A DNA stretch of 62,682 nucleotides, counting the filler, from Gemmatimonadota bacterium (lineage in GTDB: Bacteria > 4572-55 > J002): the NCBI GenBank assembly GCA_003697105.1. It is 5 parts of 5 records of this genome, joined end to end, with 100 filler letters (N's around TTAATTAATTAA, not from the genome) between each part and the next. Parts side by side here need not be neighbours in the genome. Positions count along the whole stretch, not along the records: positions 32,233 to 56,922 come from RFFQ01000010.1; 4 more parts are not named here. One strand, written 5' to 3'. This document shows, in pieces, positions 23,820 through 62,682 of this stretch; the first letter of the stretch is position 1, and each line of letters begins with the position of its first letter. The notes beneath the pieces were generated by a model. It had not been told where the DNA came from and did not search any database. It saw only the letters and a program-made list of their open reading frames with translations. The translations under genes and the position numbers were made by a program.

Positions 23820-23919
23820 NNNNNNNNNNNNNNNNNNNNNNNNNNNNNNNNNNNNNNNNNNNNTTAATTAATTAANNNNNNNNNNNNNNNNNNNNNNNNN
23901 NNNNNNNNNNNNNNNNNNN
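23820..23919. other. Artificial contig/scaffold linker
   Basis: Same N44-TTAATTAATTAA-N44 spacer. Confidence 0.97.
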
Positions 23920-26900
23920 GCAACGATGCCGGTTGAAAAATCGTATTCACCCGGACGACCGGGCATCACGAAGATATTCATGGTTTTGGTATCACCGGGG
24001 GGGATATTATAAAAGAAGAATAGCGCGGCACGCTTGCGGAACCCGTCACCGGTCAAGAACGTATCATCGACCATCCGGGTTGGTACCGGTTGTACCATAT
24101 CCCAACCGGTGATGCCTTCTAAATCATCTTCTGTTATGTCATACGGGCTCGGAATCGAGTCAACTTCGACTAAAAAATAAATATTACGTTGGGTTTCCAG
24201 CCACAACGCACCTGCCGGAATATTGATATTCGTGGGATTGTGAATGCCCACCGTAAACAGACCATTTCGCCCGAGGCGCACGGCATCGGGTCCTTGGATC
24301 GACAGTTGAATGTCCAGTGGGTCTGATGGCTCTACTAACAAACCGGATGGGATCACCGATTCCGTACCCTCAGGCAGGGTGACCACAACATCCCAAAACC
24401 CTAAGTCTAAATGTTCTGTGGGGAAAATTGCCCTTAGCTGGGTCGGGTTGAGAATGGTTGTGTATGCCGGCTCTAACACCTGTTCCTCGCGGCGCAACAT
24501 CACTTGTGTACTATCCTGAAAGCCGACTCCATCTACCCGGATGATGATTTCCCCTTCTTCCTTTAACCCACCTACCACCGGCGGGTTGATCCGGCTGATC
24601 GAAAAATCCAATGATACCGCTTGTAGCCGGATCGTTTCGGTCTCTATTCCCTCGGGCACATCCCGACCGATCAACAAGATATAGTATGATCCCGTTTGCG
24701 AGACCGGCACAAACACGCGTTGATTTGCGGCAAAGGGCACTCCGGAAAGATCATAATCACGTAGGGATGGCATTCGATTGTAAGCGATATAGATTTCATT
24801 CATCGCCAGTTGGGCATCACTGGTAAGGCCGATATCTAATACCCGATTCGGGGTATCTACCTCCATCTGGTAATATCGAACTTGACCTTCCGTCAAGGTG
24901 GTTTCAACACTATCCCCGATGGAGAAAGTCTCCACCTGTACCTGCACCGGTGTTGAAGAGACCCGCAGATTATTCTCCAGATGGCTCTCCCGAATATCAT
25001 TCCGAATATTAGTGCGGACGATAACCGAATATGATCCGGGAATCACGCCGGGGGTTTCTCCCACAAGTGTACCGTTGGGGTTGCCATTATCCCGCAAAAT
25101 ACGGGCGGGATTGATCCGTTGCTCCACTTGCAACCGTTCTCCCGGTGCCAGATCAATGTACCGTTCCTCGTAGCCGATGAGCGGGTCTTCCGCCGACCAT
25201 AGGCTATCTGCCGAGAGATACACGGCGTCCCGAATCATGCCTTCCGCCCGATTTGTGGGGTCCAGATTCTGAATCTGCCACGTAATAGTTGTTTCTTCGC
25301 CGGAGATGGCGCTATCGGGGTGGCTGATATGGGTTACTTCCAAATCCACCGGTGGCGCTAACACAATATCGAGCGGAATCGCGGCAATGTTGTTGTCTTC
25401 CGCCTCATGTTCGTAAATATCATTCCGGCTATCGGTGTGGATGAGCGCATAATAACGTCCCGAAAGATAGACCGGTATCTCCACGGTCAAGCTGTCGTGA
25501 TATGCCATACCGGTGTCCAAAACTCCGCGGTGAGGTATCGAGCCGAGCCGGATATCGTTTTCATCCAACAACGGGTTTGGAGAGAGATAAAAACCGTCAT
25601 ACCAGTTTGCTGGAGTTGGACTCATACCGTTGTTTTCAACGCTCCAATGGATTGATACCGGTTGGCCCGCCATCACTTGGCGGGCGGCGGAGTTCGGTTG
25701 CACCACTAAATCCGGGGAAGGTGATAATGTTACTGTAATCGGTCCTGGTGCCCGGATAACGTTGTTGGTTGGGTCTTTATCCTGAACCGCCCCGGCCACA
25801 TCGGTTTGGGCAAACAGATAAAAATCACCGGCGATCCCATCGGGCAGGTCAACCGCCAGTTGCCGTTCATACGCCTGACCCGCCGCTAAACCGCCAATAT
25901 GGGAACGGGTCGTAACGCTCAGATCGGTTTCGACACTTAACAAAGTATCGGCGGAGAGGTAAATTCCATCTGACCAGACCGAAGCTAAGGTATTGCCTGC
26001 CCCGATATTCATTACTTGCCATGTCAGGTTGATCGGTTGCCCGGATTCACCGCTTGCCGGCGCGGTGAACTGGCGAATCGCAAGGTCAACCGGTGGATAG
26101 GGTTGAACCGAAAGCGGCACACTCCGGGTTATATTGTTATCCTCGGCGGTATGCTCATAGATGATATTGGCAGCGTCCGTTTGGCTGTAAAGGTAGTATG
26201 TGCCCGAAATATCGGGTGGTAGCGTCACGCTCGCCGTTTGGGTACGAGTGACGGCGGTATCCAGCGGTTCAAAATGAAAAGCGACATCCAGTAAAATACT
26301 TCCGGTAGTATCCCACACTGCCGAAGGCGAAAGATAAAGTTGGTCTTGCCAAGCAAGCTCCGCTGTCGCGGCAGAACCGGCATTCCGAACGACCCAGTTG
26401 ACCGTAATCGTCTGTCCGGCAACCAGTGACGTATCCGCCGTCCAAACCGAATCGACTTGCAAATCCGCCCACGGGCTCAGATTGATGTGAACCGTTGTCT
26501 CACTCCGCGCGATATTATTCGCCGTTGCCGTGTATTCAAACACCTGATCCTGCCAATTGGTATGGACAAACAGGTAATAATCGCCGAAGATACCCTCCGG
26601 CAGGCGTTCCGTGCGTCTATCGCTGTAGCTTTCATTGGGGGCAAGTTCGCCCGTGAAAGATAGCGTATCCAACCGGATCAGGGAATCGGGGTCAAATGTG
26701 GGGCAAGGGGAAAGGTAAAGCGCATCCGTCCAAGAATCTTCGTAAGGTGTTCGTTCACCTTGATTTTGCACCGTCCATTCCACCAACATCGCTTGGCCGG
26801 AATAGACCGCCGTATCCGGGATGCTGACCGCCGTGACGGCTAGATCGGGCAATGCTCCTGCCGCTATCACCAGCGAGTCGCGACGCCGGATGTTATTGGT

Positions 26901-28106
26901 TTCGGCGTTGTATTCGTACAGATCGTTCTCTGTATCCGTTACCACAAACAGGAAATAAGTCCCCACAAGGGTATGCGGCAATGGCAAGGTATCCATGACC
27001 GTATAACCCGTGTAGGGGTCCAGGAAACCGGTGTGCGGTACGACCGCCAATAACCGGTCATCTGCTTGGCTGAAGGTGGTATCCGATGAGGCATAAATTG
27101 CATCAGACCAGTGAGGTTTCATTGTTCGACCCGAAGCGTGATTTTCCACAGTCCAAGAGAGTACCATATTTTGCCCGGCCGTCGCCGTTGCCGGCGATGT
27201 CACATCTGTCACTTGTAAATCAATGGGGGTCCGATTAATCGTAACGATTTGCTGCCGGATATTATTTAACCCGTGCGCTTCCGCCAGATCACGGTCTGCA
27301 TCAGTATAAACGGAGAGATAGTAATCCCCTTCGATATCCAGTGGTACCACGAACTCATGGTGATTGGTGTAGCTTTCACCGGAAGTGAGATAGCTTACAT
27401 TTTCAATTGCACCTAATAAAACAACCCCTGCCTCTTGCAGATCGGCATCGGGGTTTGGCATAAGATAAATTTTGTCCTGCCAGTGCGGAACATTGGTGCC
27501 CTCATTGCCGGTGTTGGTAACTTGCCATGATACTTCAAACGTTTGACCGGAAGATAATACCTCCGTTGCTTGAACATTCGTTACCTCCAGATCGGCGAGC
27601 GGATATTGTTCGGTATCCACCGTCCATTGGTGAATGTGTTGGAAGCCGTGAATACCGGTAGGGGTGACACCTTGTATAAACAGGTAATTGTCATAATCTA
27701 GGCGCATCGGATCAACCGGAATGGTGACATCGATATTCGTGGTGGGAGTGAAATCGGTGTAGGAGGTGGAGTTGTAGGTTGTCGCTGCCGTCCGGAAAAA
27801 ATAGTCAACCGTTGTAATATCTGGTAAGCCGGGAGTGCCTTTTTTGAAAAAAGGGTGGGAGTGGGGGATGCCCCAATTACCGGTTTCGTTTTTTGCCCGC
27901 AGGTACAGAGTGTGGAAGCCCTCGGGGACATCCGCCGGCGTGAATTGGAGCGTCACCACACTATCCGCTGTAACAGAAACGGGCGTACCGTTCCCCAAGC
28001 CGGGGTCGGTATCCCAAAAATACTCCACCTGTACAATATCTTGTGCTAATACCGCTGAAACAAAGAACAAGCTGAAAAGGTAGATCAAAATGGGTTCCTT
28101 TTTCAT
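23920..28106 (-). CDS. Large secreted CARDB-repeat protein, C-terminus truncated by the gap
   Basis: Signal peptide; EYFWDTDPG.G.G N-terminal module; about seven DL.V...W.V.N.G...W.D..YLS...G.YYL.V.TD...E...NN repeats. Confidence 0.88.
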
Positions 28107-30115: not shown

Positions 30116-30997
30116 TCACCGGTTGGTATTGTACAAATAGGGGTTTGCCTCGTACAACCCGTGCTCCCGCATAATCCGGTCAATGGTAAACGGATCGGGT
30201 TTGATCGAAATTTCCGGTTCGGTTGGGAGGTCTAGGCGCAGTTCGTCATAAAAAGGGGTGGTATGGTAGAGTTTTTTGTTATAGGCGATTACCATCAATT
30301 TTTCCAGATTGACTACATCAGCGATGTTGTACGCCAGTAGCGTCTCCAGAGATTGCGGAATGCCGTGTCGCTGATAATCATTCCACAAATGAATCGCAAA
30401 ACGACCATTGATACCGTCCAATTCCTGCCGGTGGATGCCGAGCCGCTTTTCACACTGTTTCAAGCCGCCGGTGTAACCCAAGCTCGCCAATACATACCGC
30501 AGATCAATGTGGGTCAGATGGTTAAGTTTGATTTTCAGATAGCGTTCAATGATGGGCACATCAAAGGTTTTGCCGTTGTAACTGACAATGACCTTATACT
30601 GCTGAATATCCTCCTTGAATTCTCGGAGATTCTCCCCCTTGACATAGCAAAATGTGGAACTGCCGTTGTAGAGGGCGATGGTTGTGATATAATGCCCTTG
30701 CCGGTACGGTGATGGTGACGTTTCGATATCCAGATACGCTGCCGAATAGCGGAACTCCGGGAAGAGCCGCCAATGCTGATTCGCCGGAAGTTTTCGGGAG
30801 AAATAACCCGGCTGATCTGCTGCCAGATGTTCTTTCGACTCCCAGAGATACCGGCGAATGTGTTGGGTGTTTATGTGGGGGAGTTGAATATCGCCCGCGG
30901 CTAAAAAATCATCCCACGTATGGATGCCTTGTGACCAAAGCCATTCTTCGGTCTGGGGGGTCACCCCCGGAATGTGGCAGAAGGTACAATCTAGCAT
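30116..30997 (-). CDS. YprB/RNase_H_2-family DEDD 3'-5' exonuclease
   Basis: N-terminal HhH-like HIPGV; YLDIET, SYNGKTFD, HIDLRY, GGLKQCEKRLG, YNIADV. Confidence 0.85.
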   Translation of the reverse strand: MLDCTFCHIPGVTPQTEEWLWSQGIHTWDDFLAAGDIQLPHINTQHIRRYLWESKEHLAADQPGYFSRKLPANQHWRLFPEFRYSAAYLDIETSPSPYRQGHYITTIALYNGSSTFCYVKGENLREFKEDIQQYKVIVSYNGKTFDVPIIERYLKIKLNHLTHIDLRYVLASLGYTGGLKQCEKRLGIHRQELDGINGRFAIHLWNDYQRHGIPQSLETLLAYNIADVVNLEKLMVIAYNKKLYHTTPFYDELRLDLPTEPEISIKPDPFTIDRIMREHGLYEANPYLYNTNR

Positions 30998-31002
30998 GAA
31001 AC

Positions 31003-31344
31003 CTACTTTCTATATTTAAGATGGCTAATGCAACCGCTCCGGCAATCCGATGCCCCAAAACGGGGAATCAAAATCTCCCCTGCCGTTTGTTGGTTGAGTT
31101 CACATTCTGGCACTGTGGATCGAATGACATCAACGACCGCAACTGCGGGATGTGCCAGCAGATAATCGATATGCCATTTCAGGGTTTTAGTGGTTCTTAA
31201 ATGTCGCCGGATGCGGGCTTCCAAATGCCGCTTGGCACTTCCGGTGTAGATGTATTCCCCTACGGGGAACTCGAAGACACCTAACTTTCCCACCGTAAGA
31301 GAGACCGGTTCGCTGACGCGGATGACCAGCTGATAGCTCTGCAT
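31003..31344 (-). CDS. GIY-YIG nuclease, DUF123 (Uri superfamily)
   Basis: GEYIYTGSA, RIRRH, WHIDYLL, ECEL, FGASDCRSGCISHL. Confidence 0.88.
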   Translation of the reverse strand: MQSYQLVIRVSEPVSLTVGKLGVFEFPVGEYIYTGSAKRHLEARIRRHLRTTKTLKWHIDYLLAHPAVAVVDVIRSTVPECELNQQTAGEILIPRFGASDCRSGCISHLKYRK

Positions 31345-32016
31345 TTACCGGATTGCCTGCCGTACCGCGGTCACGAACGTATAAAAAAGCGGTGTTGGCA
31401 ATGTTCGCCCCTCCCGATCCAGTGACGCAAACATTTTTTGGCGGATGCCGTTCGGGAGTTCAATCTGCACCCCAGCGCGATTCTGGTTGCGGTTACAGAT
31501 ATTGTTCAGATTTGTGCCGGCATAGGCCGGGTGTTCGTCCACCTGAAAACCGTATGCCTGCAAGCTATTTTCCAACCGGTGGCGAGTATATCTATCCCGC
31601 CCGCCGACATAAATGGTATCAGACTGAGATGACAAACCGTGTAGCGTGATGGTACGTCGGGAGTGGTGAACCAGATTCAGCGCAACCGGCTCATCAAAGG
31701 TGGTGCTGGTCAGATGTAAATTGCTATTACCTTCCAGTTTAATCCCGGAAAAGCTATAGCACGTGTAATCAGAGCCTGCAATAGCGAATGCCAGCTCTGT
31801 GGTACCCGGTTCAATACCGCCGCCGTGGGGCGCCAGAATTACAACGTCTGGTAATTGTCGTAAAACCTCAATTTGATAATCCGTGCCCTGACGTTCATGT
31901 TGTTTCAGTAGATGGTAACTCCCGTATGTGCTGGGAGTACCCACATCCGAACCTTTGCAAAGCGATGACAAACCAAAAAGCACGAAGATCAGCCCGGCAA
32001 CTATTTTGATGTTCAT
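31345..32016 (-). CDS. Poly-gamma-glutamate hydrolase family protein (DUF867), with signal peptide
   Basis: APHGGGIEPGTTE, LHLTSTTFDEP, TLHG, NICN, GVQIEL. Confidence 0.88.
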   Translation of the reverse strand: MNIKIVAGLIFVLFGLSSLCKGSDVGTPSTYGSYHLLKQHERQGTDYQIEVLRQLPDVVILAPHGGGIEPGTTELAFAIAGSDYTCYSFSGIKLEGNSNLHLTSTTFDEPVALNLVHHSRRTITLHGLSSQSDTIYVGGRDRYTRHRLENSLQAYGFQVDEHPAYAGTNLNNICNRNQNRAGVQIELPNGIRQKMFASLDREGRTLPTPLFYTFVTAVRQAIR

Positions 32017-32132
32017 TTTAAATTCCTTCTAAGTCCTGAAAACTCTGGAAAAGTGGTTTTTTATTGATTTATGGTGTCCTTTTGAGTATGAACCCTATTT
32101 TGTATTTTTGATGAGGATGTTGATTATGATGC

Positions 32133-32232
32133 NNNNNNNNNNNNNNNNNNNNNNNNNNNNNNNNNNNNNNNNNNNNTTAATTAATTAANNNNNNNNNNNN
32201 NNNNNNNNNNNNNNNNNNNNNNNNNNNNNNNN
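32133..32232. other. Artificial contig/scaffold linker
   Basis: Same N44-TTAATTAATTAA-N44 spacer. Confidence 0.97.
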
Positions 32233-32342
32233 GGGCTAGAAGGAAAAAGCAAAGAACCACCACCAATTGTCGATCAAGACTTTAGAAAAAGGCATCTGGC
32301 ACTTGTGACGGTCTAAAATTCTCACAGGTCAGGTGATAGAAC

Positions 32343-32568
32343 ACAGTAAACCCCTGTGGATTCCAGCGCGACACTGTCCACACAGCACGCTTCCAACCAA
32401 TCTGCCAACTCATGCAAATCACCGGTGAATGTCTCGAAAACCCGAACCGGGTCATCAGACAGATGAGGCGCTACCGCCACCCACATCAATACCCGCAGAA
32501 TTCGGGTGGGCAATCTCAAGACTTTCAAATTGAACCGGTTGCTTCTTATTTTTAGGTTGACGCTTCAT
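32343..32568 (-). pseudogene. IS110-family transposase/recombinase remnant (N-terminal DEDD domain; frameshifted and truncated)
   Basis: ATG 32568 after GGAG: MKRQP...AHPNSAGIDVG, then in another frame WVAVAPHLSDDPVRVFETFTGDLHELADWLEACCVDSVALESTGVY. GID and ESTG.Y motifs are typical of DEDD_Tnp_IS110; similarity ends at ~32343. Confidence 0.85.
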
Positions 32569-32698
32569 AAGTCTATCTCCTATCCAAACCGTGATAAAAT
32601 ACAGTGAGTTCAATAGAAGATAGGACATCACATGTGCAACGACAAGTTTCATCGGTCAACGAAATGACCGAACATAGGGACAATGATTAGGTCGATCG

Positions 32699-32830
32699 GA
32701 TCGATCTAATTCTGCGAATTAAAAAGTGTTTAGATCGATCAAAGATCGATCTATCGTCCGTGAATGAAAAAGGTTTAGATCGATCAAAAAAACCGCGATT
32801 TAATCGATAAATAAATCGAATATCGCGGTT
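32699..32830. repeat. Two tandem 45-bp units, each with 10-bp inverted termini GATCGATCTA/TAGATCGATC, plus a third hairpin AACCGCGAT...ATCGCGGTT
   Basis: Units at 32699-32743 and 32744-32788; third hairpin at 32791-32830; all read directly from the sequence. Confidence 0.85.
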
Positions 32831-33057
32831 CATATCTAAAATCCCCGTTTCCGGTGAAAGAATAGCTGAATAGTACTCTTTTTTAGAAAATACACGGATG
32901 GGGTTAAAAGATCAAGTGTAAAAATGGGTTATTTTAGCACACTTAAAAATAGTTTCGGACGTGCCCGCCTAACGATGTTGATAACCGTATTCAAAAAAGT
33001 TTCAACGATCACTGATTTTTATTGACCAGCGGGAAGTAAAGTGCAATACCGGCGGTA

Positions 33058-33912
33058 TTAAAAATCCTCTGGAAGCGTGATCCGGTACGCTGCGGCGTGT
33101 TCATAAAACGATTGGTACTGCTCGCGGTTAAATTGGTGTGCCGCCTGAATCGAATTCCGCAGAGTGCCTTCATAATAGCGCCGCCAGAGCAATACAACAA
33201 TAGCGCCAGCTTCCCCATACCGCTCTCCGCGAAGGGCATCGACCGTATAATAAGCACAGACCCCATTCAACAGCAAGGCAAGCAGCCCTTTTTGCCTTTT
33301 TCCAGCATATATCAAACCCAATCCCGGTACGACCGCAGATAGAAATCCTGCCACCTCCGGTGACTTTTGCGGCAGGGTTTCCCCATGTAAACTAAGGGAA
33401 GACAGAGCATCACACCGCAGACGAACATCCTCAGAGTGCGCCTGTTGACCCGCCTGCTCAAACCAACATTGTGCCTCCCGCCATTTTCTCAACTGCAGAT
33501 ACGCCCAGCCCATCAAATATGCCCAATGGGGATGATTCTCCTCACATTGGCGTAACGCCCTCAAGCCTAATTTCGGTTGATCTGCCCTCAAATAAACATC
33601 GGCGACCATCAAGCCGGCGGCACGCTGCAATGCCGGCGTCGCTAACGAATCCTGCTCGATTTGTTCAAAATGATAAGCGGATTGCTTCCAAAACTGCCCC
33701 TGATAATACGCCCATCCCAATCGATAATGGATCGAATCCCGCAAACTAGGTGAAACGCCGCCGGATAACAACCGTTGGTACTCCGTCACCGCCCGGTAAT
33801 AATCATGCTGGTGATACAGATGATCGGCAAACCCAAGGTCACTCATGGGTTGGGCAAAAAGGTCTGAACCGGTGAAAAGAAGTACCCATAACCCACAGAC
33901 ACACCATCTCAT
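33058..33912 (-). CDS. Secreted TPR protein with C-terminal SPxxAxxLSxxxPG (TM2/DUF5683-like) membrane module
   Basis: Signal peptide; FADHLY..DYYRAVTEYQR; KSPEVAGFLSAVVPGLGLIYAG. Confidence 0.75.
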   Translation of the reverse strand: MRWCVCGLWVLLFTGSDLFAQPMSDLGFADHLYHQHDYYRAVTEYQRLLSGGVSPSLRDSIHYRLGWAYYQGQFWKQSAYHFEQIEQDSLATPALQRAAGLMVADVYLRADQPKLGLRALRQCEENHPHWAYLMGWAYLQLRKWREAQCWFEQAGQQAHSEDVRLRCDALSSLSLHGETLPQKSPEVAGFLSAVVPGLGLIYAGKRQKGLLALLLNGVCAYYTVDALRGERYGEAGAIVVLLWRRYYEGTLRNSIQAAHQFNREQYQSFYEHAAAYRITLPEDF

Positions 33913-34769
33913 TCAACAATACCTTTCACCTGAGAACGTGCATTGACTTCCAGCTCGATATGACGAAAGTGGTGGACTTGAACACGGTGGTTGAATTGCA
34001 ACGCGGCGGCAATCGCCCCGTAAATATTCCCCAGATAAAAAACACCGCCACCCAGACCAAAAACCGCCAATCGGACAGTATGATCGTCTTCGTGCGCTTG
34101 GTATGTTGCCCACGCGGCGGCGGAAATCAGTAAAAAAGAGAAACCCCCATCCTGCCAACGTCCGGCGTAAGTTTGCCCCATCCCGGGAAGTAACGCCGAC
34201 AGCAATCCCGCGACCACCGGTGACCGCCGGGGAAGCCGCAACCCATCTGCCGCCAGACGGGTTAAAACCGGAGATACTGGCATAAATTCCTGCCGTGCCT
34301 GCTCCCAATCATATTGCCGGGCAGCAACCAACCCTTTTAAAAGATGCCCTTCTTGCCAGCATGTATCTGCCGGGGCACAATAGGCGAATAACTGATCGGC
34401 TAATTCACCACTGCGGGAATAATCACCCTGCCGGTACGCAACCACAATTGACGACAAGTAGGCTTTCCGCTGCCAATAGCGTGCGGAATCCGCCTGTAGC
34501 AACGGGGCATAACTCTGCAAGGCAAACTGCCATTTCCCTTGTGCCTGATACGCCTGCCCAATCCGAAATTGGGTCGCCAGTTGTAAGGAATCTGCCGGAA
34601 AAAAATACAAATACCGCTTGTATTCTGATATCGCTCGGAAATGATCCCCCTGCCGGTAGAGTTCATCCGCAAATTTCAATATATCGGGAGCATGAGGTTG
34701 GGCAGTTACGACATTCCCACTCAATACGATCCATACAATCCAGCCGGTCAGCTTGATCAATCTACGCAT
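33909..34769 (-). CDS. Secreted TPR protein, paralog of the downstream gene
   Basis: FADELY..DHFRAISEYKR; RSPVVAGLLSALLPGMGQTYAG; ATGA overlap with the next gene. Confidence 0.75.
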   Translation of the reverse strand: MRRLIKLTGWIVWIVLSGNVVTAQPHAPDILKFADELYRQGDHFRAISEYKRYLYFFPADSLQLATQFRIGQAYQAQGKWQFALQSYAPLLQADSARYWQRKAYLSSIVVAYRQGDYSRSGELADQLFAYCAPADTCWQEGHLLKGLVAARQYDWEQARQEFMPVSPVLTRLAADGLRLPRRSPVVAGLLSALLPGMGQTYAGRWQDGGFSFLLISAAAWATYQAHEDDHTVRLAVFGLGGGVFYLGNIYGAIAAALQFNHRVQVHHFRHIELEVNARSQVKGIVE

Positions 34770-34883
34770 ATTGACATTCTACTCTGCAAAGTCGGGTGCT
34801 TTGCCTGCCCCACCTTCGCAACAAAAAACCGGACGAAATAATCGCCCGGCAACACGATAATCGCCCACAAGCACAAGCGATGA

Positions 34884-36827
34884 TTATGAAAGGTACTCAT
34901 TTAACAATTGGTTCACCACAGCACCTGCAATTTTCCCCCGGCACTGTTTCATCACATTCCCCATAATGAAATGGTGTTTTGCCGCCGGACTGGTGTAGGG
35001 ACGTTCAACCGCAAGTTCCTGTTGAAGGAGGTCTTTCACGGTTGCTTCGTCAATTGAAGGCAACAGAAAGGCGTGAATTTGGGTTGCTAGATCAACAGTC
35101 CCATCACTTTTGAGGAATGTTTCTAATAACGTTTCCGCCGCTTCCACCAATGGCGGGTGGGTGTTCGCATGGGTAAACAGGGTCTGCCAGACGGCTTCGG
35201 TTAAACGGGAGGTATCCAGCCCTTCGCGGCGCCAGGCCACCGTTTTTTCAAACATCAAGCGGGCAATTCGCACTGGAGAGAGGCGGTTAAATGTCTTGAC
35301 CAAAGATTCAAATAATTCTGCCTGCATCGAAGAAGCAATTGGTACTAACAGATGTTCCGGCACTCCCCATTCGCGGTAGCGGTCTTCCCGCACCCACATT
35401 TGCTCCGGCACATCTTCAGCGAGGTTTTCAATGCGCTGGGGGGTAATCTCCAATGGCGGGAGGTCGGTATCGGGGTACATCCGCTCGGGACCCGGCAGAA
35501 TACGCTCAAAGCCGTTTGTACCATCGTCAAGGGCTTGGCGCGTTTCACTGGGGACAGGACAATCCAATGTTGCTTCGCGGGCACGGATAGCAATCTCATC
35601 AATGGCAGTTTTCACATCTTGAGAGCTACCCCAGACCAAGATTAATGCGTCATTAGCTTGTGCCCGAACCGCTTTGCGAATCCGGTTCCAGACCACATTG
35701 CCGATGGTGACTTCCGTACTTTCCGAGGTCAAGATGTTGGGCTGGCGGGTCAGGCAAGCAATCACCCGCACCCGGTCGGAAATTTCCTTGGAAAAGACCG
35801 TTCCGGTTTGGGTCGGGTAGCTCAGAATGCCCAAAAAGCCCTTTAAGTTGACACATGCCACCATCTCTTGCCGCTTATGAATTGCCCGTTGGATCGGTTC
35901 CCAGGTTGTGTGCATCAGGTAGGAGGTCACATCCACCCATTCATATTGAAAGGTGTCCGGGGTGATGCCGCGCCGGCGCAATTCATCCCGAATTTTCAGC
36001 AAGGAATATTGTCGTTGGGCTTCATGGTAGATCAAGCGAGGAATGAGTTTGATGCGGTGGACACCTTTGATTTCGATCCGGGTACCCCCAGCGATACTCA
36101 CATTAACATCTTCCCGTGCCGCACCTAAACCGGTGCGAACTCTGCCAGTACTGCGGGAAACATACCGGATAATATTGCACACATCCGCAACTTCCTGCGG
36201 AGTACGCATGACTGGCTCCGTAACAACTTCCGTGATCGGCATCCCCAACCGGTCGGTGATGTAAATACGCTCATGTCCGATGTCAGACACTTCCCGGCAG
36301 GAATCTTCCTCCAACCCCAACTGCACCAAACCGATCTTACGCCCTTTGTAAGGTAACCAGCCATCAATCCCGACAATTGTCGTCCGTTGAAAGCCGGTGG
36401 GAATACTCCCATCCAGATATTGCTTGCGGGCAATATGAATCTCGCTCACGAGCTTATAGTTCATCACCATCGCCAGTTGTAAGGCAATATCAAGCGCTTG
36501 TTGGTTGATTTCAAAGGGGGGTGTATCATCCATCTCATAGGTACAAACACTTTGATGATTGATGCGGTAGATAATTTCTTTGCGAGTTTTGAATTCCATC
36601 AGCGCCGTTCCATCGTACTCGCCCAATTCCGAAAGGGTTGGGCGCATGTGGCGCAAAATCTCGGCATCGTATTCTTTGGTGTTGTATAACCCGGCGGGAC
36701 AGCGGCAGAATAGTTTGCGGTCGGTTAATAGCTGTTGGTGTACTTCCAACCCGGAACGTAGCCCGATTTCGGCATAATCTTCCGGCGTCATCTCTTCAAA
36801 AGGCTTCAAAAGTCCAGATAACGTCAT
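34884..36827 (-). CDS. gatE: Glutamyl-tRNA(Gln) amidotransferase subunit E (archaeal-type)
   Basis: GLEVHQQL..KLFCRCP, RPTLSELGEYD, CTYEMDDTPP, DGSIPTGFQRT, LEEDSCR, DRLGMP..EVVT, REDVNVSI..G.RIEIKGV, a central insertion domain, SETR, RILPGPERMYPDTDLPP and C-terminal MGNVMKQCRGK. These match GatE rather than GatB. Confidence 0.88.
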   Translation of the reverse strand: MTLSGLLKPFEEMTPEDYAEIGLRSGLEVHQQLLTDRKLFCRCPAGLYNTKEYDAEILRHMRPTLSELGEYDGTALMEFKTRKEIIYRINHQSVCTYEMDDTPPFEINQQALDIALQLAMVMNYKLVSEIHIARKQYLDGSIPTGFQRTTIVGIDGWLPYKGRKIGLVQLGLEEDSCREVSDIGHERIYITDRLGMPITEVVTEPVMRTPQEVADVCNIIRYVSRSTGRVRTGLGAAREDVNVSIAGGTRIEIKGVHRIKLIPRLIYHEAQRQYSLLKIRDELRRRGITPDTFQYEWVDVTSYLMHTTWEPIQRAIHKRQEMVACVNLKGFLGILSYPTQTGTVFSKEISDRVRVIACLTRQPNILTSESTEVTIGNVVWNRIRKAVRAQANDALILVWGSSQDVKTAIDEIAIRAREATLDCPVPSETRQALDDGTNGFERILPGPERMYPDTDLPPLEITPQRIENLAEDVPEQMWVREDRYREWGVPEHLLVPIASSMQAELFESLVKTFNRLSPVRIARLMFEKTVAWRREGLDTSRLTEAVWQTLFTHANTHPPLVEAAETLLETFLKSDGTVDLATQIHAFLLPSIDEATVKDLLQQELAVERPYTSPAAKHHFIMGNVMKQCRGKIAGAVVNQLLNEYLS

Positions 36828-36908
36828 AGCGTCAATCCTCAGTTTCTAAGGGATGAAATAAAAGAGATCAAATGAATAGGGTATATATACGCTCTATTGC
36901 GAGATCAC

Positions 36909-37679
36909 TCAATGAATTTTTTCAGTCACCGAAGGATGCGAAAAGAATTGTGAAAGTTGGTCTTTGATCTGGCGTTCCATCTCATGAAAATAGCGATCAT
37001 GAAAGGAATAAACCGTCACTTCAAACTCCACCACATCCGCCGTTTGTCGGACGGACTTGAGACGTGGCTCCCGTTTTAAGGATGCCGCCGGAAAGTTCAG
37101 GATAATCTCCCGTAACCAACTCAAAAATTCGGGATTCACCTGAGACGCCGGTACTTGCAGTTGGAACACATATGTCTTTTCCGTCTCGATGGGGCTTGTT
37201 TTTTTGATAACCCCTTGGGAAATAGTGCTATAGGGGATTTTCACCCGCTCCCCATCGTGGGTTTCGATTTCGAGGATGCGAAATCCCAACGTCCGAATAT
37301 ACCCCTGATAGGTATCCCATTCAAGCCAATCACCTACTTGATACACATCCTCGGATTTTAAGATGATCCCAGCGGCAATATCCCGGATAGCAAACCAGAC
37401 CGAGCCAATCCCCACAGCAACCATGACCCCCAACAGCAGATACGCCAATTGCGGGCTTTCCCGAAAAAGAGATTTGAGCATCTGAAAACTAAAAATAAGC
37501 CAAACCAGCATTTCGACGACGAGAAACCCTTGTCCCAACCGCAACCGGTACGGTTTTTTGAGGTCTGCCCGGTGGAGAACGGTTTGCAAAAGCCGGAAAC
37601 TGATAAACAAAATCACGCCCAGCAGCAGAAATTCGACCAATAGAAATTCCGATATGTTGAAATGCCATGACGGATTCAT
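36909..37679 (-). CDS. Small MscS-family mechanosensitive channel protein
   Basis: Three TM helices, then RDIAAGIIL...YQVGDWL...GYIRTLGFR...VKIPYS (MscS beta domain). Confidence 0.8.
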   Translation of the reverse strand: MNPSWHFNISEFLLVEFLLLGVILFISFRLLQTVLHRADLKKPYRLRLGQGFLVVEMLVWLIFSFQMLKSLFRESPQLAYLLLGVMVAVGIGSVWFAIRDIAAGIILKSEDVYQVGDWLEWDTYQGYIRTLGFRILEIETHDGERVKIPYSTISQGVIKKTSPIETEKTYVFQLQVPASQVNPEFLSWLREIILNFPAASLKREPRLKSVRQTADVVEFEVTVYSFHDRYFHEMERQIKDQLSQFFSHPSVTEKIH

Positions 37680-40600
37680 AGGACTTCCATCTCCTTTAAT
37701 TTGCGCACCAGATACGGATGGAGAAACGGATTAATTTCTAAAATATGATACGTATTTTCCGTGACAATCCCCATCCGTTTGAGGGTTGTGAGGTCTTGCT
37801 TCCAACGTTCGGGGGGACGGCGTAAAATACGAGCCAGCCGGGCACGTGTCAATTTTTTGTGCAAAATAAACTGAATCAGGATCAGAATCCAATCTGGTTC
37901 AAGCAAATTCAAGGGTTTTAGGTCTGGGGTCACCGGTTTACGGATAATCAAGGTTTCATTTTGGATCTCCTGAATATTGGCTATCCACGCTTGAAGCGCC
38001 ACACCCGGATTACCGCGGGAATATTTGAAATACTCCGTAAACAAGCGGGCTTGTTTCCATTCTGCCAAATGTTTCTCGTCGTGCCCATCCAATTGGAAAG
38101 TCAATCCGGTGGAACGGTGTCGCCGTAAAATTAAATCCTTCAATTGTTCCGCATCAAACGGGGGGCAAGAGATTACTTCCAGCATGAGATGGTCTAAGTT
38201 ACGTAACGCATTGATAAAATTGTAGCTATAATGATTCAAATTGAGGATAAAAAAGTATTTATCCCCATAATCCGTCATCAATTGTAAAATACGATTAACG
38301 ACAACCATGCCGCCGGCACTACGCTCCCACCACATATCCAAATCATTGAAAACAAAAACACTATGAGCCGGTAAGGTATTAAAAATATCGCTATAGGGCA
38401 ATTCGGACGCCACGGCATGTTGAACGGTTGTTTCAAACACGGCCAACTCAATTGACCCACCTTGTGGCGGGTCAATGCGATAAACCCGCCGCGTATCAAA
38501 ACATTGATGCGCAATGAAAAGCGAAAGTGCCGTTTTCCCGGAATACCGCTCCCCAATGATGGCTAAGCCTCCGGCAATACCGCTCCGAAAGCGGCGTACT
38601 GCCTGCTCTGCGCGGGCGATCTCAGCCGTAGCACCGATCCAAAACTCCGTACTAATCGTAGGTTTACCGATGAACAACTGTTTATAGTAAAAGGGCAATG
38701 CCGCCAGAATCCGTTTTGGTGGCGAAATGGTATCGACCAGCGCCAACATGCTTTCCACCTTCCCCCCGGCGGTTTCAAGGGGTGAAGTACCCCTTGTGCG
38801 GGATAAGTTGCGGCTCTGATGGTACCACAATTTCACCAGTACCTCCCGTCCAAAACGATACAACTGCTCCAACTGTTCCTGAAATTTGGAGGGCACCGCT
38901 TGGTCCACTTGATGCTGCATATACTGCCCCCAAACACCGGTGGAATGGGTGATAAAGTACAAATTAATCTTTTCAAAGGTCTGTTTTAGATGGCGTTGGG
39001 TGGCTTCATTCAGGATGTTCAAGATTTTTTCGATTTGCTCTCGTTCGCTTTGGATAATCCGTATCCCATCGGTGATTTTTTGGACGGTCGCCTCGTAGAC
39101 GGTCTCCAGATCAATCTCTAAATCGCTGAGATGGAGCGAGACCATGCGGAGTACATCACTGGTGGTGCCTAAGGCTTTGCTCAGTTTGAGCGGCAATTCC
39201 GCCATCACGGCTTGTAAAGGGCGCACAAATTCAGTCGCAATCAGATAATCCACCAGCCGCCGGAGGGATATTGTCAACACCTCAATGCGATCAAACTGGC
39301 GGTTTTCAATCATGTTGAGGGATTCCCCACTCATCACCTCAACCGTTTCCGGCAGTTCACCGGTAACCTCTTGAATTTCAGCGACAAGTTTGTCCATTGC
39401 CTCTTGGATATCAAAATCAACTCGTAGTTCTGGCATAACCGGCAGGGTATAGTCTGTTTTTTCCTGAAGATGGGTGCGCAGTTGCTCCAAGTCCGCCGTT
39501 AATTCTTGGAAGTTTTCACTGATATTTTTCTGCACACTCTGATTCAACTCGGACATCATTTTTTGCACCAGCATCCGCATCCGGCTCTGCAAAGAGGCTA
39601 ACACAAGGTCAGTCAACAGAACATTCAGTACCAAATACTGATTTTTCAACCATAGACTTGGGACATTCAAAATTTGATCCCGTAATGCTTGTGCAGACTT
39701 CGGAACTCTGCGCTGGCGCCGGATAAATTGGTTGACATCGATCCGGTCGGCATCCTGAATCAGCCGTTGCAGGATGTGCCGGCTCTCTCGTAGCAAGGTA
39801 TGGCGGCAAGTATTAAATTTCTCCTGATGACTTGCCGTGGTCTGCGCCGTAAGGGTCTTCAATTTTTCGCGTTCGGCGGCGATAACTTCCGGCGAAAACT
39901 CATCTGTTTGGAGGTGCCGGTCTAAAACGGATAAACTGGACTTTGCCTGTTCTAACAATCGCTGCACCTGATACAGATTTTGGTAGCTATCCACCCCAAA
40001 TTCTTGCAATATCTGGTAAAAAAGGTGGCGTCCTTTGGTTTCTACATAAAAAATTTTAAGGTCACGTAACCGTACATCCTGCGTGATCACTTTTGCGGGA
40101 TTTAGACGTGCTTTCTGCCACTTAAAAAGCTTCAGGCGAAGTGAATCTTCCGGCTGGATGGCAAACCGCTCGAGTTCATAGCCAACATTCAAGGTTTCTG
40201 GGGTGCGGTATGCCAGCTCGGTCATTTGTGAAAAAATCCACGTGATCCCCGCCTCCGCCATCTCCTTTTGGTCGGGCAAGTAATCTGTTTTAAACTCTGT
40301 GAGAATCCGGCGAGCTTGAAACAAGAAATTATTCCGAATTTTGGGGATCACCTTCTGTTGCCGTAAACGCTCCGTGGTGGAAACCTGCTTTTCCAGATCG
40401 GTAAATGTGCGCTGGATCAACTGGTTGATGGTGCCAATCAACTGTTGGTCTGCTCCGTACATCTCTTTCAAGTAGCAGTCGATGTAATCCCGCAGGAGGT
40501 CTTCCAACTGTTGGGCTAACTGCCGTAATGCTCGTTCCAGCGCATCATTTTGGGGAAAGATCAGTGCCGGCAGTTGAAATTCGGTAATAGGGGTGGTGTC

Positions 40601-42823
40601 ATCCTTCAATTTGGGTTGTTTTCGCTCGATCCCGACAAAAATTTCCTCAAAATAGGACGAAGCCCGGATCAACAGCACCGTACCGATTTCATGAAGCAAC
40701 CAATTGGTATTTGCAATAAATTGATCTACATTTTGCGGATTGACATCGGGCATCCCGATGATAGTCAGATCAGAATGCACGGATTCCAGTTTAATCAAGT
40801 CCCGAAAACTGCGCTTTTCAATGGCATTGTTGATCACTTTTACTTCGGCGGGGATGCGATATTCTTCCAATACTCGCCCCATATTTTTGATGATTCGGGG
40901 AGTAAGGGAACTGTCCTCATTCACAATCATGACCCGGATGAGCGCGTCGCGCCATTCATCCGAAACGCGCATAAATTTGACTAACATCAAAGATAAGCTG
41001 ATATTATTACCGGAACCCCGCCACCAAATATCAATTTGCTGGCGTTTGCCATATCCAAACCGGTCATCATAATCAAGTAGTAAGAGATTATAATCCAGCT
41101 CGGTCATGGTGTGGAGCAAGTCCACAAAGCGTGCCGGATTACGGCTGTTGCGCACCCACCCCATCAGCACGGTATTGGGTTCAATTCCGGAAAATCCGTA
41201 GCTCCGCACAATCATATCAATACCGTCATAGATGTTGCGGCAGGTTTGGCGGCGCATAAAAATGCCGGTAAATTCATCCGGGTCGGTCTTCAACGCTTGG
41301 TTGGATTTGGAAAAGAGGACTTTCGTGGTCGTATCTTCAATGAGATCAAAATTGGAGAGAACACCCCGATTTTGTACCAACCATTTACCGAATTGCAACA
41401 AATGCGGACGTTTATCCGTGCCCCCACTAAATAGGATCACGTTGGGCTGCCAGTTTCGTTTGTGAAGGTCACTTTGGTTGAGTTTGAACAGCCCAGAGCG
41501 AACCACCGTAAACCAGACCCCTGCCCAGACATCCCCGGCATCTGTACCGAGTTCCTTGCGCTTGAGATAGAAAAAGATGCCGATCATGATCAGGGAGGAG
41601 GCAATCATTGCCACCACATCCAATAAAATCATAAACAGAAAGCAGACAACCGCACCGACAACGCTTACCCATGTGGGAATCTTAAATTCGGGACGGAAAT
41701 CAGGACTTGCCCAACTTTCAATGGCATACGTCAGGTTGAGGAAACCGTAGGTGGTCATGTAAAACATGGAGACAATGCGGGCGATCAGGTCTAATTCCCC
41801 GCTCCAGATAGCAATCTCGGCAATAATGGCAGTAAAAATGAGGGCATTTCGCGGTTCGTTACCTTCACCAAACCCGATTCCGAAAAGTTTTGGTGTCACT
41901 CGATCCATTGAGAGGGCTTGTAAAATACGTGGTGCTCCCAAAATGCCCCCCATAGCAGAAGAGATGGTCGCCGCCCAAATACCACCCAATACCAGCGGTG
42001 ACCACCACGCAATTTGCTTAAGAATGTTGTAATCCGTGCGAAGAACCTCGCCATCCACAGTTAGACCTAGAAAAATCGCCAAACTAATATAGATCACAAG
42101 TCCGGTTCCTACTGCCGCCATAGTGCCGACCGGAATCGATTTGTTAGGGTCTTTCAAATCTCCTGACATGGCAATACCCGCTGTGAAGCCCGTTACCGCT
42201 GGAAAGAATATCCCAAAAACCTCCGCAAAGGAGCGGGATTCTGCCGGCGCAAACAAATTCACGTGGGTGGGAACAAAATCATGGGAACCCAAAAAGATGG
42301 AAACGAGGGAGAGCGCAATCAACCCCAATACTAAAAATTGCGATTTTAAGGCAAGAGACGTGCTGATAAATGCGAGTGTCGTAACAACAAGCAACGTTAA
42401 AGAACCGGTGAGCCGCAAATCCGCTTTGGTCGTACCTAACGTGATGCCAAAAAATGAATCCAGTAGCGGTGAAAACGCCTCATTGAAACTTTCGGCAAAA
42501 CCGACAATATACAGCGCAATACTAACCGCCGTTCCGGCATAAAGGGCAATACCCAATGCGCCACCAATGGAGAGTCCCAAACTGCGTGAAATGATATAAT
42601 AGACACCTCCAGCTTTGACCCGCTTGTCTGTCGCAATGGAAGACACACTCAATCCAGTGGAGACCGAGATAATGTGCGCAATCAAAATAATCCCAATCGC
42701 TCCGATAATCCCGGCTTGTCCAACGACCCACCCGAGACGCAGGTACATAATCACGCCAAGGATCGTCAGAATCGATGGAGTAAATACCCCCGCAAATGTT
42801 CCGAATTTGTAACCGTTTGCCAT
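37676..42823 (-). CDS. Cation-chloride cotransporter (SLC12/CCC-like) fused to a long helical region, a P-loop NTPase and a winged-helix-like end
   Basis: FGTFAGVFTPSILTILGVIMYLRLGWVVG, GGVYYIISRSLG, FFPAVTG...SGDLKDP, SPDFRP.F, NWQP, IDIWW; C-terminal IIGERYSGKT (Walker A) and VFVFNDLD (Walker B-like). Confidence 0.88.
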   Translation of the reverse strand: MANGYKFGTFAGVFTPSILTILGVIMYLRLGWVVGQAGIIGAIGIILIAHIISVSTGLSVSSIATDKRVKAGGVYYIISRSLGLSIGGALGIALYAGTAVSIALYIVGFAESFNEAFSPLLDSFFGITLGTTKADLRLTGSLTLLVVTTLAFISTSLALKSQFLVLGLIALSLVSIFLGSHDFVPTHVNLFAPAESRSFAEVFGIFFPAVTGFTAGIAMSGDLKDPNKSIPVGTMAAVGTGLVIYISLAIFLGLTVDGEVLRTDYNILKQIAWWSPLVLGGIWAATISSAMGGILGAPRILQALSMDRVTPKLFGIGFGEGNEPRNALIFTAIIAEIAIWSGELDLIARIVSMFYMTTYGFLNLTYAIESWASPDFRPEFKIPTWVSVVGAVVCFLFMILLDVVAMIASSLIMIGIFFYLKRKELGTDAGDVWAGVWFTVVRSGLFKLNQSDLHKRNWQPNVILFSGGTDKRPHLLQFGKWLVQNRGVLSNFDLIEDTTTKVLFSKSNQALKTDPDEFTGIFMRRQTCRNIYDGIDMIVRSYGFSGIEPNTVLMGWVRNSRNPARFVDLLHTMTELDYNLLLLDYDDRFGYGKRQQIDIWWRGSGNNISLSLMLVKFMRVSDEWRDALIRVMIVNEDSSLTPRIIKNMGRVLEEYRIPAEVKVINNAIEKRSFRDLIKLESVHSDLTIIGMPDVNPQNVDQFIANTNWLLHEIGTVLLIRASSYFEEIFVGIERKQPKLKDDTTPITEFQLPALIFPQNDALERALRQLAQQLEDLLRDYIDCYLKEMYGADQQLIGTINQLIQRTFTDLEKQVSTTERLRQQKVIPKIRNNFLFQARRILTEFKTDYLPDQKEMAEAGITWIFSQMTELAYRTPETLNVGYELERFAIQPEDSLRLKLFKWQKARLNPAKVITQDVRLRDLKIFYVETKGRHLFYQILQEFGVDSYQNLYQVQRLLEQAKSSLSVLDRHLQTDEFSPEVIAAEREKLKTLTAQTTASHQEKFNTCRHTLLRESRHILQRLIQDADRIDVNQFIRRQRRVPKSAQALRDQILNVPSLWLKNQYLVLNVLLTDLVLASLQSRMRMLVQKMMSELNQSVQKNISENFQELTADLEQLRTHLQEKTDYTLPVMPELRVDFDIQEAMDKLVAEIQEVTGELPETVEVMSGESLNMIENRQFDRIEVLTISLRRLVDYLIATEFVRPLQAVMAELPLKLSKALGTTSDVLRMVSLHLSDLEIDLETVYEATVQKITDGIRIIQSEREQIEKILNILNEATQRHLKQTFEKINLYFITHSTGVWGQYMQHQVDQAVPSKFQEQLEQLYRFGREVLVKLWYHQSRNLSRTRGTSPLETAGGKVESMLALVDTISPPKRILAALPFYYKQLFIGKPTISTEFWIGATAEIARAEQAVRRFRSGIAGGLAIIGERYSGKTALSLFIAHQCFDTRRVYRIDPPQGGSIELAVFETTVQHAVASELPYSDIFNTLPAHSVFVFNDLDMWWERSAGGMVVVNRILQLMTDYGDKYFFILNLNHYSYNFINALRNLDHLMLEVISCPPFDAEQLKDLILRRHRSTGLTFQLDGHDEKHLAEWKQARLFTEYFKYSRGNPGVALQAWIANIQEIQNETLIIRKPVTPDLKPLNLLEPDWILILIQFILHKKLTRARLARILRRPPERWKQDLTTLKRMGIVTENTYHILEINPFLHPYLVRKLKEMEVL

Positions 42824-43383: not shown

Positions 43384-44457
43384 TTAATGACTGGCGCCAA
43401 CGGCATCACCAATTGATTTCCAGCCATCCCGATCCATCAATTCAATCAAGCGCCGGCAGATGTTCCATACCGCACGGGGTCCTTCGTAGATAAAGCCCGT
43501 GTAAATCTGCACCAAAGATGCCCCTGCCAGAATCTTTTCGTAGGCATCATCACCCGTAAAAATACCGCCAACCCCGATAATTGGGATAGAACCATCACTC
43601 AGATGATAAAGTTGGTGGATAATTTCAGTTGATTTTCGGCGGAGGGGTTGCCCACTAAGCCCACCGGTTTGGGGTTCATCCAACCGGACGCCTTCGCGGG
43701 AGATCGTGGTATTGGTGGCAATGATCCCGTCAATGCGGTGTTCTTGCACGACGGTCACAATGTCTTCCAACTGTCCTTCAGTCACATCGGGGGCAATCTT
43801 CAAAAAGATGGGTTTGTGTTTATTATTTTTTGCTTGAAGTGCGGCTAAAATCTGGTGGAGTTCATCCTTGTTTTGCAGTTCCCGCAGATTGGGCGTATTG
43901 GGCGAACTGACATTTACCGTAAAATAATCCCCAAACGGGTACAATTTTTCAAAAGAAGCGCAATAATCTTCTACCGCCCTCTCTAACGGCACAACTTTTG
44001 TTTTTCCAATATTGATTCCCAACGGGATCGGACATGTCCTGTCCTGATAAAACTGCCGCAAGCGACGTGCAACCCGTGTTGCCCCATCATTATTGAAACC
44101 CATCCGATTGATAATAGCCCGATCCGCAGGATACCGGAACAGCCGGGGTTTAGGGTTACCCGGTTGTCCCTGAGCCGTCACCGTACCGACTTCAACATGT
44201 CCAAACCCGAAATGATGCCAGAACCGGATGCCATGCGCATTTTTATCAAACCCTGCCGCCAACCCGACCGGATTCGGGAAATGAAGCCCGGCGAACGACA
44301 CGTGCAAACGTGGATTTTGGTATGTCAAAAGTGGGTCTATGAGGTGTAACATGGGTGAAGCCGCACGTAGAAATGCCATTGTCCCCTCATGTACCACTTC
44401 TGGGTCAACCTCAAAAACAAGTGGACGAATAAAAGACTTATATAATAATAGCATCAT
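43384..44457 (-). CDS. pyrD: Quinone-dependent dihydroorotate dehydrogenase (class 2)
   Basis: NPVGLAAGFDKN, GNPKPRLFR, INRMGFNN, NVSSPNTPNLR, KIAPD, GGLSG, GVGGI. Confidence 0.96.
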   Translation of the reverse strand: MMLLLYKSFIRPLVFEVDPEVVHEGTMAFLRAASPMLHLIDPLLTYQNPRLHVSFAGLHFPNPVGLAAGFDKNAHGIRFWHHFGFGHVEVGTVTAQGQPGNPKPRLFRYPADRAIINRMGFNNDGATRVARRLRQFYQDRTCPIPLGINIGKTKVVPLERAVEDYCASFEKLYPFGDYFTVNVSSPNTPNLRELQNKDELHQILAALQAKNNKHKPIFLKIAPDVTEGQLEDIVTVVQEHRIDGIIATNTTISREGVRLDEPQTGGLSGQPLRRKSTEIIHQLYHLSDGSIPIIGVGGIFTGDDAYEKILAGASLVQIYTGFIYEGPRAVWNICRRLIELMDRDGWKSIGDAVGASH

Positions 44458-62204: not shown

Positions 62205-62682
62205 TTACCGGAGTAACACCATTGATTTCATCTGGATTGTCTGCTCCGTTTGCAATTGAGACACATATACCCCCGATGGGACTGCCATACCCTGCGCATC
62301 GTTGCCGTTCCACTCCACCGTGTGATACCCGGCTGGGGTGGATTCTTGAATCAGCGTTGTGACCAAGCGCCCGTCAATGGTGTAAATCGAAAGATTCACG
62401 TTCGCCTCGTGGGGTAAGTCAAAGCGGATGGTGGTTTTGGGGTTAAATGGGTTCGGATATGCCGCATAGAGTGTGATCTGTTGCGGCACGGCGACCGTCT
62501 CCTGAATCCACTTGACCGGCTGTTCGTTGATCTGCCCGGAGCGGATCGCCAGATTGGCGAGATTCCCCAAACGGAGCAAATCGGGGGTGGTTAGGGGTGT
62601 CACACCGAAGGCACCGACCCGCCACTGATTTTCGACCCGATTGATTGCCAGTTGCCAATTTGCCGGCACACTGGGGGCGAGG
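62205..62682 (-). CDS. C-terminal part of a secreted protein with FlgD-Ig / T9SS-type-A-like sorting domain (5' end outside the window)
   Basis: YPNPFNPKTTIRFDLP...IYTIDGRLVTTL...GYHTVEWNG...VPSGVY...KSMVLLR. Confidence 0.85.
   Translation of the reverse strand, partial: LAPSVPANWQLAINRVENQWRVGAFGVTPLTTPDLLRLGNLANLAIRSGQINEQPVKWIQETVAVPQQITLYAAYPNPFNPKTTIRFDLPHEANVNLSIYTIDGRLVTTLIQESTPAGYHTVEWNGNDAQGMAVPSGVYVSQLQTEQTIQMKSMVLLR

Follow-up and report, generated by a model that had tools for sequence, protein, structure and literature searches.

Reviews up to 2021, in the portions available to us, confine the Glu-tRNA(Gln) amidotransferase GatDE to archaea (PMC2811023, PMC2330236, PMC7373986, PMC8007984), and one of them calls it an "archaeal signature protein" (PMC2330236). 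In the accessible part of that source, archaeal GatDE is said to exist because glutaminyl-tRNA synthetase (GlnRS) is absent, and the E subunit of the M. thermautotrophicus enzyme is described as holding Mg2+ through His15, Glu157 and Glu184, mutation of which abolishes both kinase and transamidase activity (PMC2330236). The archaeal enzyme recognises a tRNA-Gln with an A1-U72 pair, according to sections of two of these reviews (PMC2330236, PMC2811023). Here we describe a gatE gene in a 62.7-kb stretch of DNA from a Gemmatimonadota bacterium (assembly GCA_003697105.1), which we refer to as the window. This gatE is intact and belongs, as an ordinary representative, to a large clade of bacterial GatDE that the literature, though not the databases, has overlooked. 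Its only unusual feature is that gatD does not adjoin it.

The window protein passed both GatE equivalog models of NCBIfam, with 522.3 bits against NF003107 (cut-off 456) and 456.9 bits against TIGR00134 (cut-off 319.55). In contrast, all six GatB models (TIGR00133 and NF004011-15) failed, at 74-154 bits against cut-offs of 315-680; the best of them, NF004012, gave 154.5 bits (cut-off 338), and TIGR00133 gave 129.8 bits (cut-off 314.8). In a phmmer search of the PDB, the GatE chains of P. abyssi (1ZQ1_C, 333 bits) and M. thermautotrophicus (2D6F_C, 304 bits) aligned end to end over window residues 17-644, whereas GatB chains reached at most 92 bits and aligned to residues ~107-285 alone. The initial annotation had named the gene an archaeal-type GatE from its motifs and a central insertion domain, and both observations hold: RPTLSELGEYD, CTYEMDDTPP and PGPERMYPDTDLPP are all in the translation, and the Pfam GatB_N profile, which has 277 positions, is stretched over residues 26-466 and therefore reveals a large central insertion. 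The Pfam GAD profile matched this insertion over positions 3-94 of 95 with 13.2 bits (E = 0.11, cut-off 23.4), compared to 41.2 bits for a Heimdallarchaeota GatE, and this stretch runs without interruption in the alignments to 1ZQ1 and 2D6F. Judged from these alignments, the GatE-type insertion domain, which is absent from GatB, is present but divergent. GatB and GatE are paralogues with a common cradle domain (PMC2330236, in the part available), which would favour reading the gene as a diverged GatB subunit of GatCAB. With the six GatB models far under their cut-offs and both GatE models over theirs, an insertion domain of the GatE type, and 2.2 changes per column on the branch between the GatB and GatE rows of our tree, we give that reading a negligible probability.

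The gene also appears to have been kept in working order. In an alignment of 58 GatE rows with 3 GatB rows, conservation within the GatE set reached 95% or more at 70 columns. The window GatE keeps 69 of these, the sole exception being the conservative change L198I, and it matches every one of the 34 near-invariant columns that the GatB rows also share. The Mg2+ ligands His15, Glu157 and Glu184 of M. thermautotrophicus map, via ungapped blocks of the 2D6F alignment, to H30, E173 and E200; conservation at these columns is 95% or more across the GatE rows, and the three GatB rows are identical there. The YqeY-like C-terminal tail scores just over its cut-off (Table 1), compared to 83.6 bits for GatB_Yqey in the Heimdallarchaeota GatE, and the GXXAXGX tail motif (PMC2811023, from the portion available) could not be placed confidently in the alignments. 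Two other members of the bacterial clade, P0002 and P0015, likewise score weakly for the insertion and tail domains, and because they share this weakness we ascribe it to the clade at large rather than to decay of the window copy. Three further positions, T74, T81 and D101, are clade-specific substitutions in the 58-row alignment. A decaying relic, left behind after disruption of the operon and no longer working as an enzyme, would account for the missing partner gene and for the weak tail and insertion scores, and since the relatives have GlnRS the enzyme could be dispensable. However, the open frame is full-length, the near-invariant columns (with the one exception) and all Mg2+ ligands are kept, the weak appendage scores recur in P0002 and P0015, and the terminal branch is not lengthened (0.32, compared to 0.16-0.34 for its neighbours). 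We therefore consider a relic very unlikely.

The phylogeny that had been proposed as a check placed the window GatE inside a bacterial clade. In a site-heterogeneous tree of 61 rows (IQ-TREE with posterior mean site frequencies, "quick" search), the gene fell in a 30-row clade with a Shimodaira-Hasegawa-like approximate likelihood-ratio test (SH-aLRT) value of 100 and a stem of 0.5. Besides the window protein, this clade contains 13 rows with a bacterial label, 15 without a label and one "Thermoplasmata" row. The nearest rows were P0002 (71% identical) and P0022 (Cloacimonetes 4572_55), followed by Caldithrix and Calditrichia rows, and identity to archaeal representatives was 30-41%. The bacterial GatE clade is, in these trees, monophyletic, and we claim neither a donor nor a direction of transfer. 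One arrangement that we tried, with the bacterial clade nested in Asgard as sister to Heimdallarchaeota, was not upheld. The Heimdallarchaeota GatE did appear as sister to the bacterial clade in two trees, a FastTree tree of 131 rows and the quick IQ-TREE search (SH-aLRT 98), but under an approximately unbiased (AU) test the grouping of the 28 archaeal rows as monophyletic could not be rejected (p-AU 0.63), a group that was chosen after the tree had been seen, and the tree constrained in this way was 6.9 log-likelihood units better than the unconstrained one. The row labelled "Thermoplasmata archaeon" (P0416), which lies at the base of the bacterial clade, has no precomputed GAD match and sits on a 5.16-Mb contig, which makes its label doubtful.

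Such genes are also not the rarity that an archaeal-type GatE in a bacterium would imply. A word-index search matched at least 8000 proteins, and among the 120 listed, the 119 non-self matches were 60-70% identical to the window GatE. All eight organism-named entries among the 120 are bacterial (Caldithrix, Calditrichia, "Cloacimonetes 4572_55", Neomarinimicrobiota and "bacterium"), and the databases already name these bacterial proteins GatE. An exhaustive search of 50%-identity representatives returned 642 clusters at E ≤ 1e-30, archaeal clusters included. Among 401 evenly sampled genomes of one bacterial phylum (that of genome G002), 16 encoded a GatE over the cut-off, and in a set of 14 control genomes only the four archaea were positive.

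The contig that carries the gene is bacterial, and the assembly around gatE is sound. Bacteria-specific genes flank gatE on both sides. The window encodes the anhydro-N-acetylmuramic acid kinase AnmK (457.7 bits, cut-off 387), a DUF5683 protein, a protein with a C-terminal sorting domain of the type IX secretion system (T9SS) at the window end, and the quinone-dependent (class-2) PyrD that the initial annotation had placed on this contig. Further neighbours are the alpha and beta subunits of pyruvate dehydrogenase E1, a two-component histidine kinase, an exopolysaccharide priming glycosylphosphotransferase, and FG-GAP and CARDB surface proteins. The description of the flanks as TPR/DUF5683-like was loosely right: the gene pair downstream gives weak TPR signals with no Pfam match over threshold, and the DUF5683 gene lies in the window at some distance (Table 1). 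The nearest non-self relatives of AnmK are 47-52% identical and all the organism-named ones are bacterial; the host thus belongs to a poorly sampled bacterial lineage. The G+C content at gatE is 0.526, inside the window range of 0.43-0.53. Furthermore, positions 33000-38000 are spanned in one piece by the Logan contigs of each of two runs (depth ~20-24x) that come from the same hot-spring metagenome study, with 1 and 3 differences from the window and zero joints or loose ends. The rival idea that an archaeal gatE was mis-joined to bacterial DNA, or that the contig is itself archaeal contamination, draws on the reviews that call GatDE archaea-only (in the parts available, as cited above). It is contradicted by the bacterial genes on both sides, by the G+C content, by the two per-run assemblies that bridge both ends of gatE, and by the protein itself, which lies in the bacterial clade and is 60-71% identical to bacterial-labelled proteins and at most 41% to archaeal representatives. 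We consider such a chimera or contaminant extremely unlikely.

We then looked for the partner subunit. As the initial annotation had stated, the window lacks gatD: a bacterial GatD used as tblastn query gave zero matches at E ≤ 1e-5 across the 62.7 kb, the best permissive match having E = 0.10, and no gatD pseudogene remnant was found in the window either. The place that gatD takes in the relatives is occupied by two overlapping paralogous genes (Table 1), which have no similarity to GatD. About 35 nt past the gatE stop, a hairpin followed by a T-run resembles a terminator. It was identified solely by its pattern, and the five terminator-like sites seen in the region are not above the shuffled expectation of 6.7, but the hairpin is suggestive because it lies directly after the gatE stop codon.

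To place this arrangement among those of its relatives, we used 43 GatE loci in species-representative genomes and 42 loci on metagenome contigs. In the genome set, gatD starts 5-149 nt after gatE at 36 loci, six are cut by a contig end, and at one (L007) the complete 10-kb flanks contain no gatD, which gives 36 of 37 informative loci. All 25 metagenome loci with room downstream have gatD there, one of them beyond a 1.4-kb gap, and the other 17 of the 42 end at or within 151 nt past the end of the gatE match. Together, gatD lies downstream of gatE at 61 of 62 informative loci. The neighbour genes of the window showed no synteny with any of the 85 relative loci. The exception, L007, belongs to genome G010, in which gatE lies on a 196-kb contig (C32) and an intact gatD (502 bits) lies inside a 398-kb contig (C23). 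G010 is a genuine unlinked pair and a precedent for a split. GatD scored over its curated cut-off in 42 of the 43 GatE-bearing genomes, and in the lone miss, G041, gatE itself is truncated at a contig end. Because GatD accompanies GatE this regularly, and because G010 provides a precedent, the GatD of the window organism is most likely encoded elsewhere in its genome.

The initial annotation had offered a second option, that GatD is replaced by another ammonia donor. As a full alternative, gatE would be an orphan whose gatD was lost in the lineage, and GatE would use free ammonia or another glutaminase such as GatA. In its favour, the 62.7 kb hold neither gatD nor a remnant, gatE seems to end its own transcription unit, and roughly half of the relatives have GatA (15 of 43 genomes pass its curated cut-off, and 26 of 43 have a match at E ≤ 1e-60), so that another glutaminase is possible in principle. 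However, GatE and GatD co-occur in all the genomes except the one with the truncated gatE, and none of the scanned window open reading frames (ORFs) contained a glutaminase, amidase or asparaginase-type domain, which leaves the replacement without a candidate in these ORFs. Furthermore, a GatE-GatA pairing is not described in the portion of PMC2330236 that was available. We therefore regard an orphan GatE as quite unlikely.

The view of GatDE as an archaea-only enzyme of cells that lack GlnRS does not describe this group. The contig is bacterial, and GlnRS scored over its curated cut-off in 39 of the 43 GatE-bearing genomes; in a 40th (G025) it is split over contig ends. Asparaginyl-tRNA synthetase (AsnRS) was over its cut-off in 40 of the 43 and GatB in 20, and thus bacterial GatDE for the most part occurs beside complete direct routes. 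These counts do not support the archaeal-style Gln-tRNA route, which the initial annotation had proposed for this lineage, as a necessity. We rejected one apparent case of GatDE as the sole Gln route, the closed genome G004, in which GlnRS, GatA and GatB were not found: glutamyl-tRNA synthetase (GluRS) is likewise missing, which is impossible, so that absences in this assembly are unreliable. The same holds for absence calls in G038, where no GluRS was found and the GatB and GatA genes are split or interrupted by stops; both genomes (of loci L016 and L038, respectively) are long-read-style assemblies. A separate observation concerns G029, the genome of L028, an incomplete metagenome-assembled genome that encodes GatDE and two full GluRS genes (558 and 531 bits), and in which GlnRS was not found; this resembles a GluRS1/GluRS2-type set-up.

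The likely substrate also differs from that of the archaeal enzyme. The window holds no tRNA genes and no Rfam families, and thus tRNA-Gln's first base pair, which the initial annotation had singled out for inspection, was read in the relatives: every tRNA-Gln(CUG) gene from six GatDE genomes carries T1 with A72, which is the bacterial U1-A72 pair and not the archaeal A1-U72. This pair, the divergent insertion and tail domains, and the substitutions T74, T81 and D101 suggest that bacterial GatDE may read its tRNA differently from the archaeal enzyme.

Taking these results together, we consider it highly probable, as one joint reading, that the window gene encodes a functional GatE of a GatDE-type amidotransferase, that it is a vertically resident member of a bacterial clade and not a recent archaeal import, and that the operon has been split here, with gatD most likely elsewhere in the genome. 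Several points weigh against this. The window's own six-row subclade contributes none of the 62 informative loci, and its 13 closest metagenome relatives (69-84% identical) all end inside gatE. The inventories of GatD, GlnRS, GluRS and tRNA-Gln come from relatives' genomes, and the host itself is seen over 62.7 kb. The two runs whose contigs bridge the gatE ends may be the source of the window DNA and are therefore not independent support. The presence of GlnRS in most relatives means that the enzyme is not obviously needed, and the weak insertion and tail scores, together with the U1-A72 pair, mean that archaeal substrate recognition is not simply transferable.

With a GatD supplied from elsewhere, the enzyme would work as follows. 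By analogy with the solved archaeal enzyme, as described in the available part of PMC2330236, GatE would bind Glu-tRNA(Gln), phosphorylate the gamma-carboxyl of the attached Glu with Mg2+/ATP through H30, E173 and E200, and amidate the activated Glu to give Gln-tRNA(Gln). The ammonia would come from an asparaginase-like GatD dimer that hydrolyses Gln or Asn, and would be carried to GatE through a tunnel. In the host, a bacterium from a hot-spring metagenome, the usual gatE-gatD operon would be split, with gatE probably ending its own transcription unit and the two genes presumably transcribed separately. Its role would most likely be either to provide a second path to Gln-tRNA(Gln) or to clear Glu-tRNA(Gln) that a non-discriminating GluRS might make.

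In a different view, bacterial GatDE would not stand in for a missing GlnRS but would have a separate, retained function in bacteria that possess both GlnRS and AsnRS, using a tRNA with U1-A72 that the archaeal enzyme would refuse. Examples of such a function would be the clearance of Glu-tRNA(Gln), or the making of Gln-tRNA from Asn or Glu under glutamine scarcity, and the two subunits would be uncoupled in the window organism, possibly with GatE acting on free ammonia. We hold this view to be unlikely as a whole.

Table 1 Positions of gatE, its domains and other features in the window
Feature	Position	Strand	Basis or remark
gatE, 647-residue kinase/transamidase subunit of Glu-tRNA(Gln) amidotransferase GatDE	34884..36827	(-)	Single ORF, ATG start
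Catalytic cradle part with Mg2+ ligands H30, E173, E200 (residues 30-200)	36227..36740	(-)	2D6F alignment
AspRS-like (GAD) insertion domain, residues 314-408, divergent	35604..35888	(-)	Pfam, 1ZQ1/2D6F alignment
YqeY-like C-terminal tail, residues 562-646	34890..35144	(-)	Pfam GatB_Yqey 28.4 bits, cut-off 27
Terminator-like hairpin, 9 pairs (6 G-C), then TTTTTGTT	34828..34850	(-)	Consensus scan
Two overlapping paralogous genes, 284 and 286 residues, not part of the enzyme	33058..34769	(-)	ORFs
Low-GC (~43%) gap of ~1 kb	32017-33057		No sizeable ORF
10-pair palindrome in the gap	32731-32753		
Poly-gamma-glutamate hydrolase-like, DUF123 and RNase_H_2-superfamily genes	30116-33057		Hydrolase-like gene 209 bits
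1715-residue membrane protein	36909-42823	(-)	SLC12/amino-acid-permease-type domain, residues 13-560
Quinone-dependent (class-2) PyrD	43384-44457		
DUF5683 protein	5803-6327		
Two tandem ClC-type chloride channel paralogues, 625 and 626 residues	15738-19496	(+)	C-terminal CBS domains, zero gap
1412-residue surface-type protein	23868-28106		CARDB repeats
2984-residue surface-type protein	47950-56904		DUF11, DUF7619
Protein with T9SS C-terminal sorting domain	62205-62681		Window end

The remaining features of the window touch the enzyme less directly (Table 1). In each of the two paralogous proteins downstream of gatE, the N-terminal half is TPR-like and the C-terminal half is hydrophobic, with a PG(L/M)G..YAG-type motif common to both. 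Past this pair there are genes for a poly-gamma-glutamate hydrolase-like protein, a DUF123 protein and an RNase_H_2-superfamily protein, and a low-GC gap that contains a palindrome. On the other side, a short MscS-like gene lies directly upstream of gatE, and its start is overlapped by the stop of the gene for the 1715-residue protein. In that protein, the membrane domain is followed by ~1150 further residues without a family match, including a Walker-A-like GERYSGKT stretch. Elsewhere, the window carries the two tandem chloride channel genes and two giant surface-type proteins; the latter, with the T9SS sorting domain, are consistent with an FCB-type (Fibrobacteres-Chlorobi-Bacteroidetes) cell envelope.

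Two further observations concern the relatives. The 13 closest metagenome contigs (L089-L101), some of them 5-18 kb long, each break off at a different codon of gatE (codons 71 to 327). These breaks may reflect a bias of the search, in which only an N-terminal peptide pattern was shared, or an assembly-breaking feature of the lineage. In two Kapabacteria loci there are extra copies of the last ~30 gatD codons, 2.4-2.7 kb past the real gatD (L002, 15715-15801; L043, 15967-16056).

Full-text literature searches, with supplements outside their scope, found no description and no assay of a bacterial GatDE. Papers that name both "GatDE" and "Bacteroidetes" did not describe one, and a text search of the Melioribacter roseus genome paper found no mention of GatDE. 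On its own the window gene matters little, being one more intact bacterial GatE that annotation pipelines name correctly. The wider pattern is weightier: GatDE occurs in many bacterial species, mostly beside GlnRS and AsnRS, with a tRNA-Gln of the U1-A72 type. The scientific interest thus lies in this clade-wide coexistence with GlnRS and in the U1-A72 substrate rather than in the window copy, and it raises the question of why a second route to Gln-tRNA is kept. As M. roseus is a cultured species (PMC3534657), this question is experimentally approachable.

Among known systems, the archaeal GatDE enzymes (1ZQ1, and 2D6F with tRNA-Gln) have the same domain order as the window GatE: a cradle with the Mg2+ site, an AspRS-like insertion, a helical region and a YqeY-like tail, the last being the D-loop-binding domain in solved amidotransferases. 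The Mg2+ ligands are conserved between them, and the alignments run end to end. Unlike the archaeal proteins, the window GatE belongs to a bacterial host and to a separate, strongly supported clade, its insertion and tail score far lower than those of the Heimdallarchaeota protein (13 compared to 41 bits and 28 compared to 84 bits), its substrate is likely a U1-A72 and not an A1-U72 tRNA, and gatD is not adjacent. GatB of the bacterial GatCAB enzymes (S. aureus 2DF4/3IP4, T. maritima 3AL0) has a homologous cradle, reflected in the shared invariant columns, and carries out the same chemistry, kinase then amidation (PMC2330236, in the part available). GatB also reads a U1-A72 tRNA, according to the accessible portion of PMC2811023. 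Unlike the window GatE, however, GatB has no insertion domain and pairs with GatA and GatC. The known systems also include the bacterial GatDE operons annotated in genomes and MAGs of Ignavibacteria/Kapabacteria, Melioribacter, Calditrichia, Marinimicrobia and others, which belong to the same clade, encode a GatE of the same length and domain set, and are 50-71% identical to the window protein. The window differs from these operons in having no gatD, a separation that among the relatives is shared by G010 alone.

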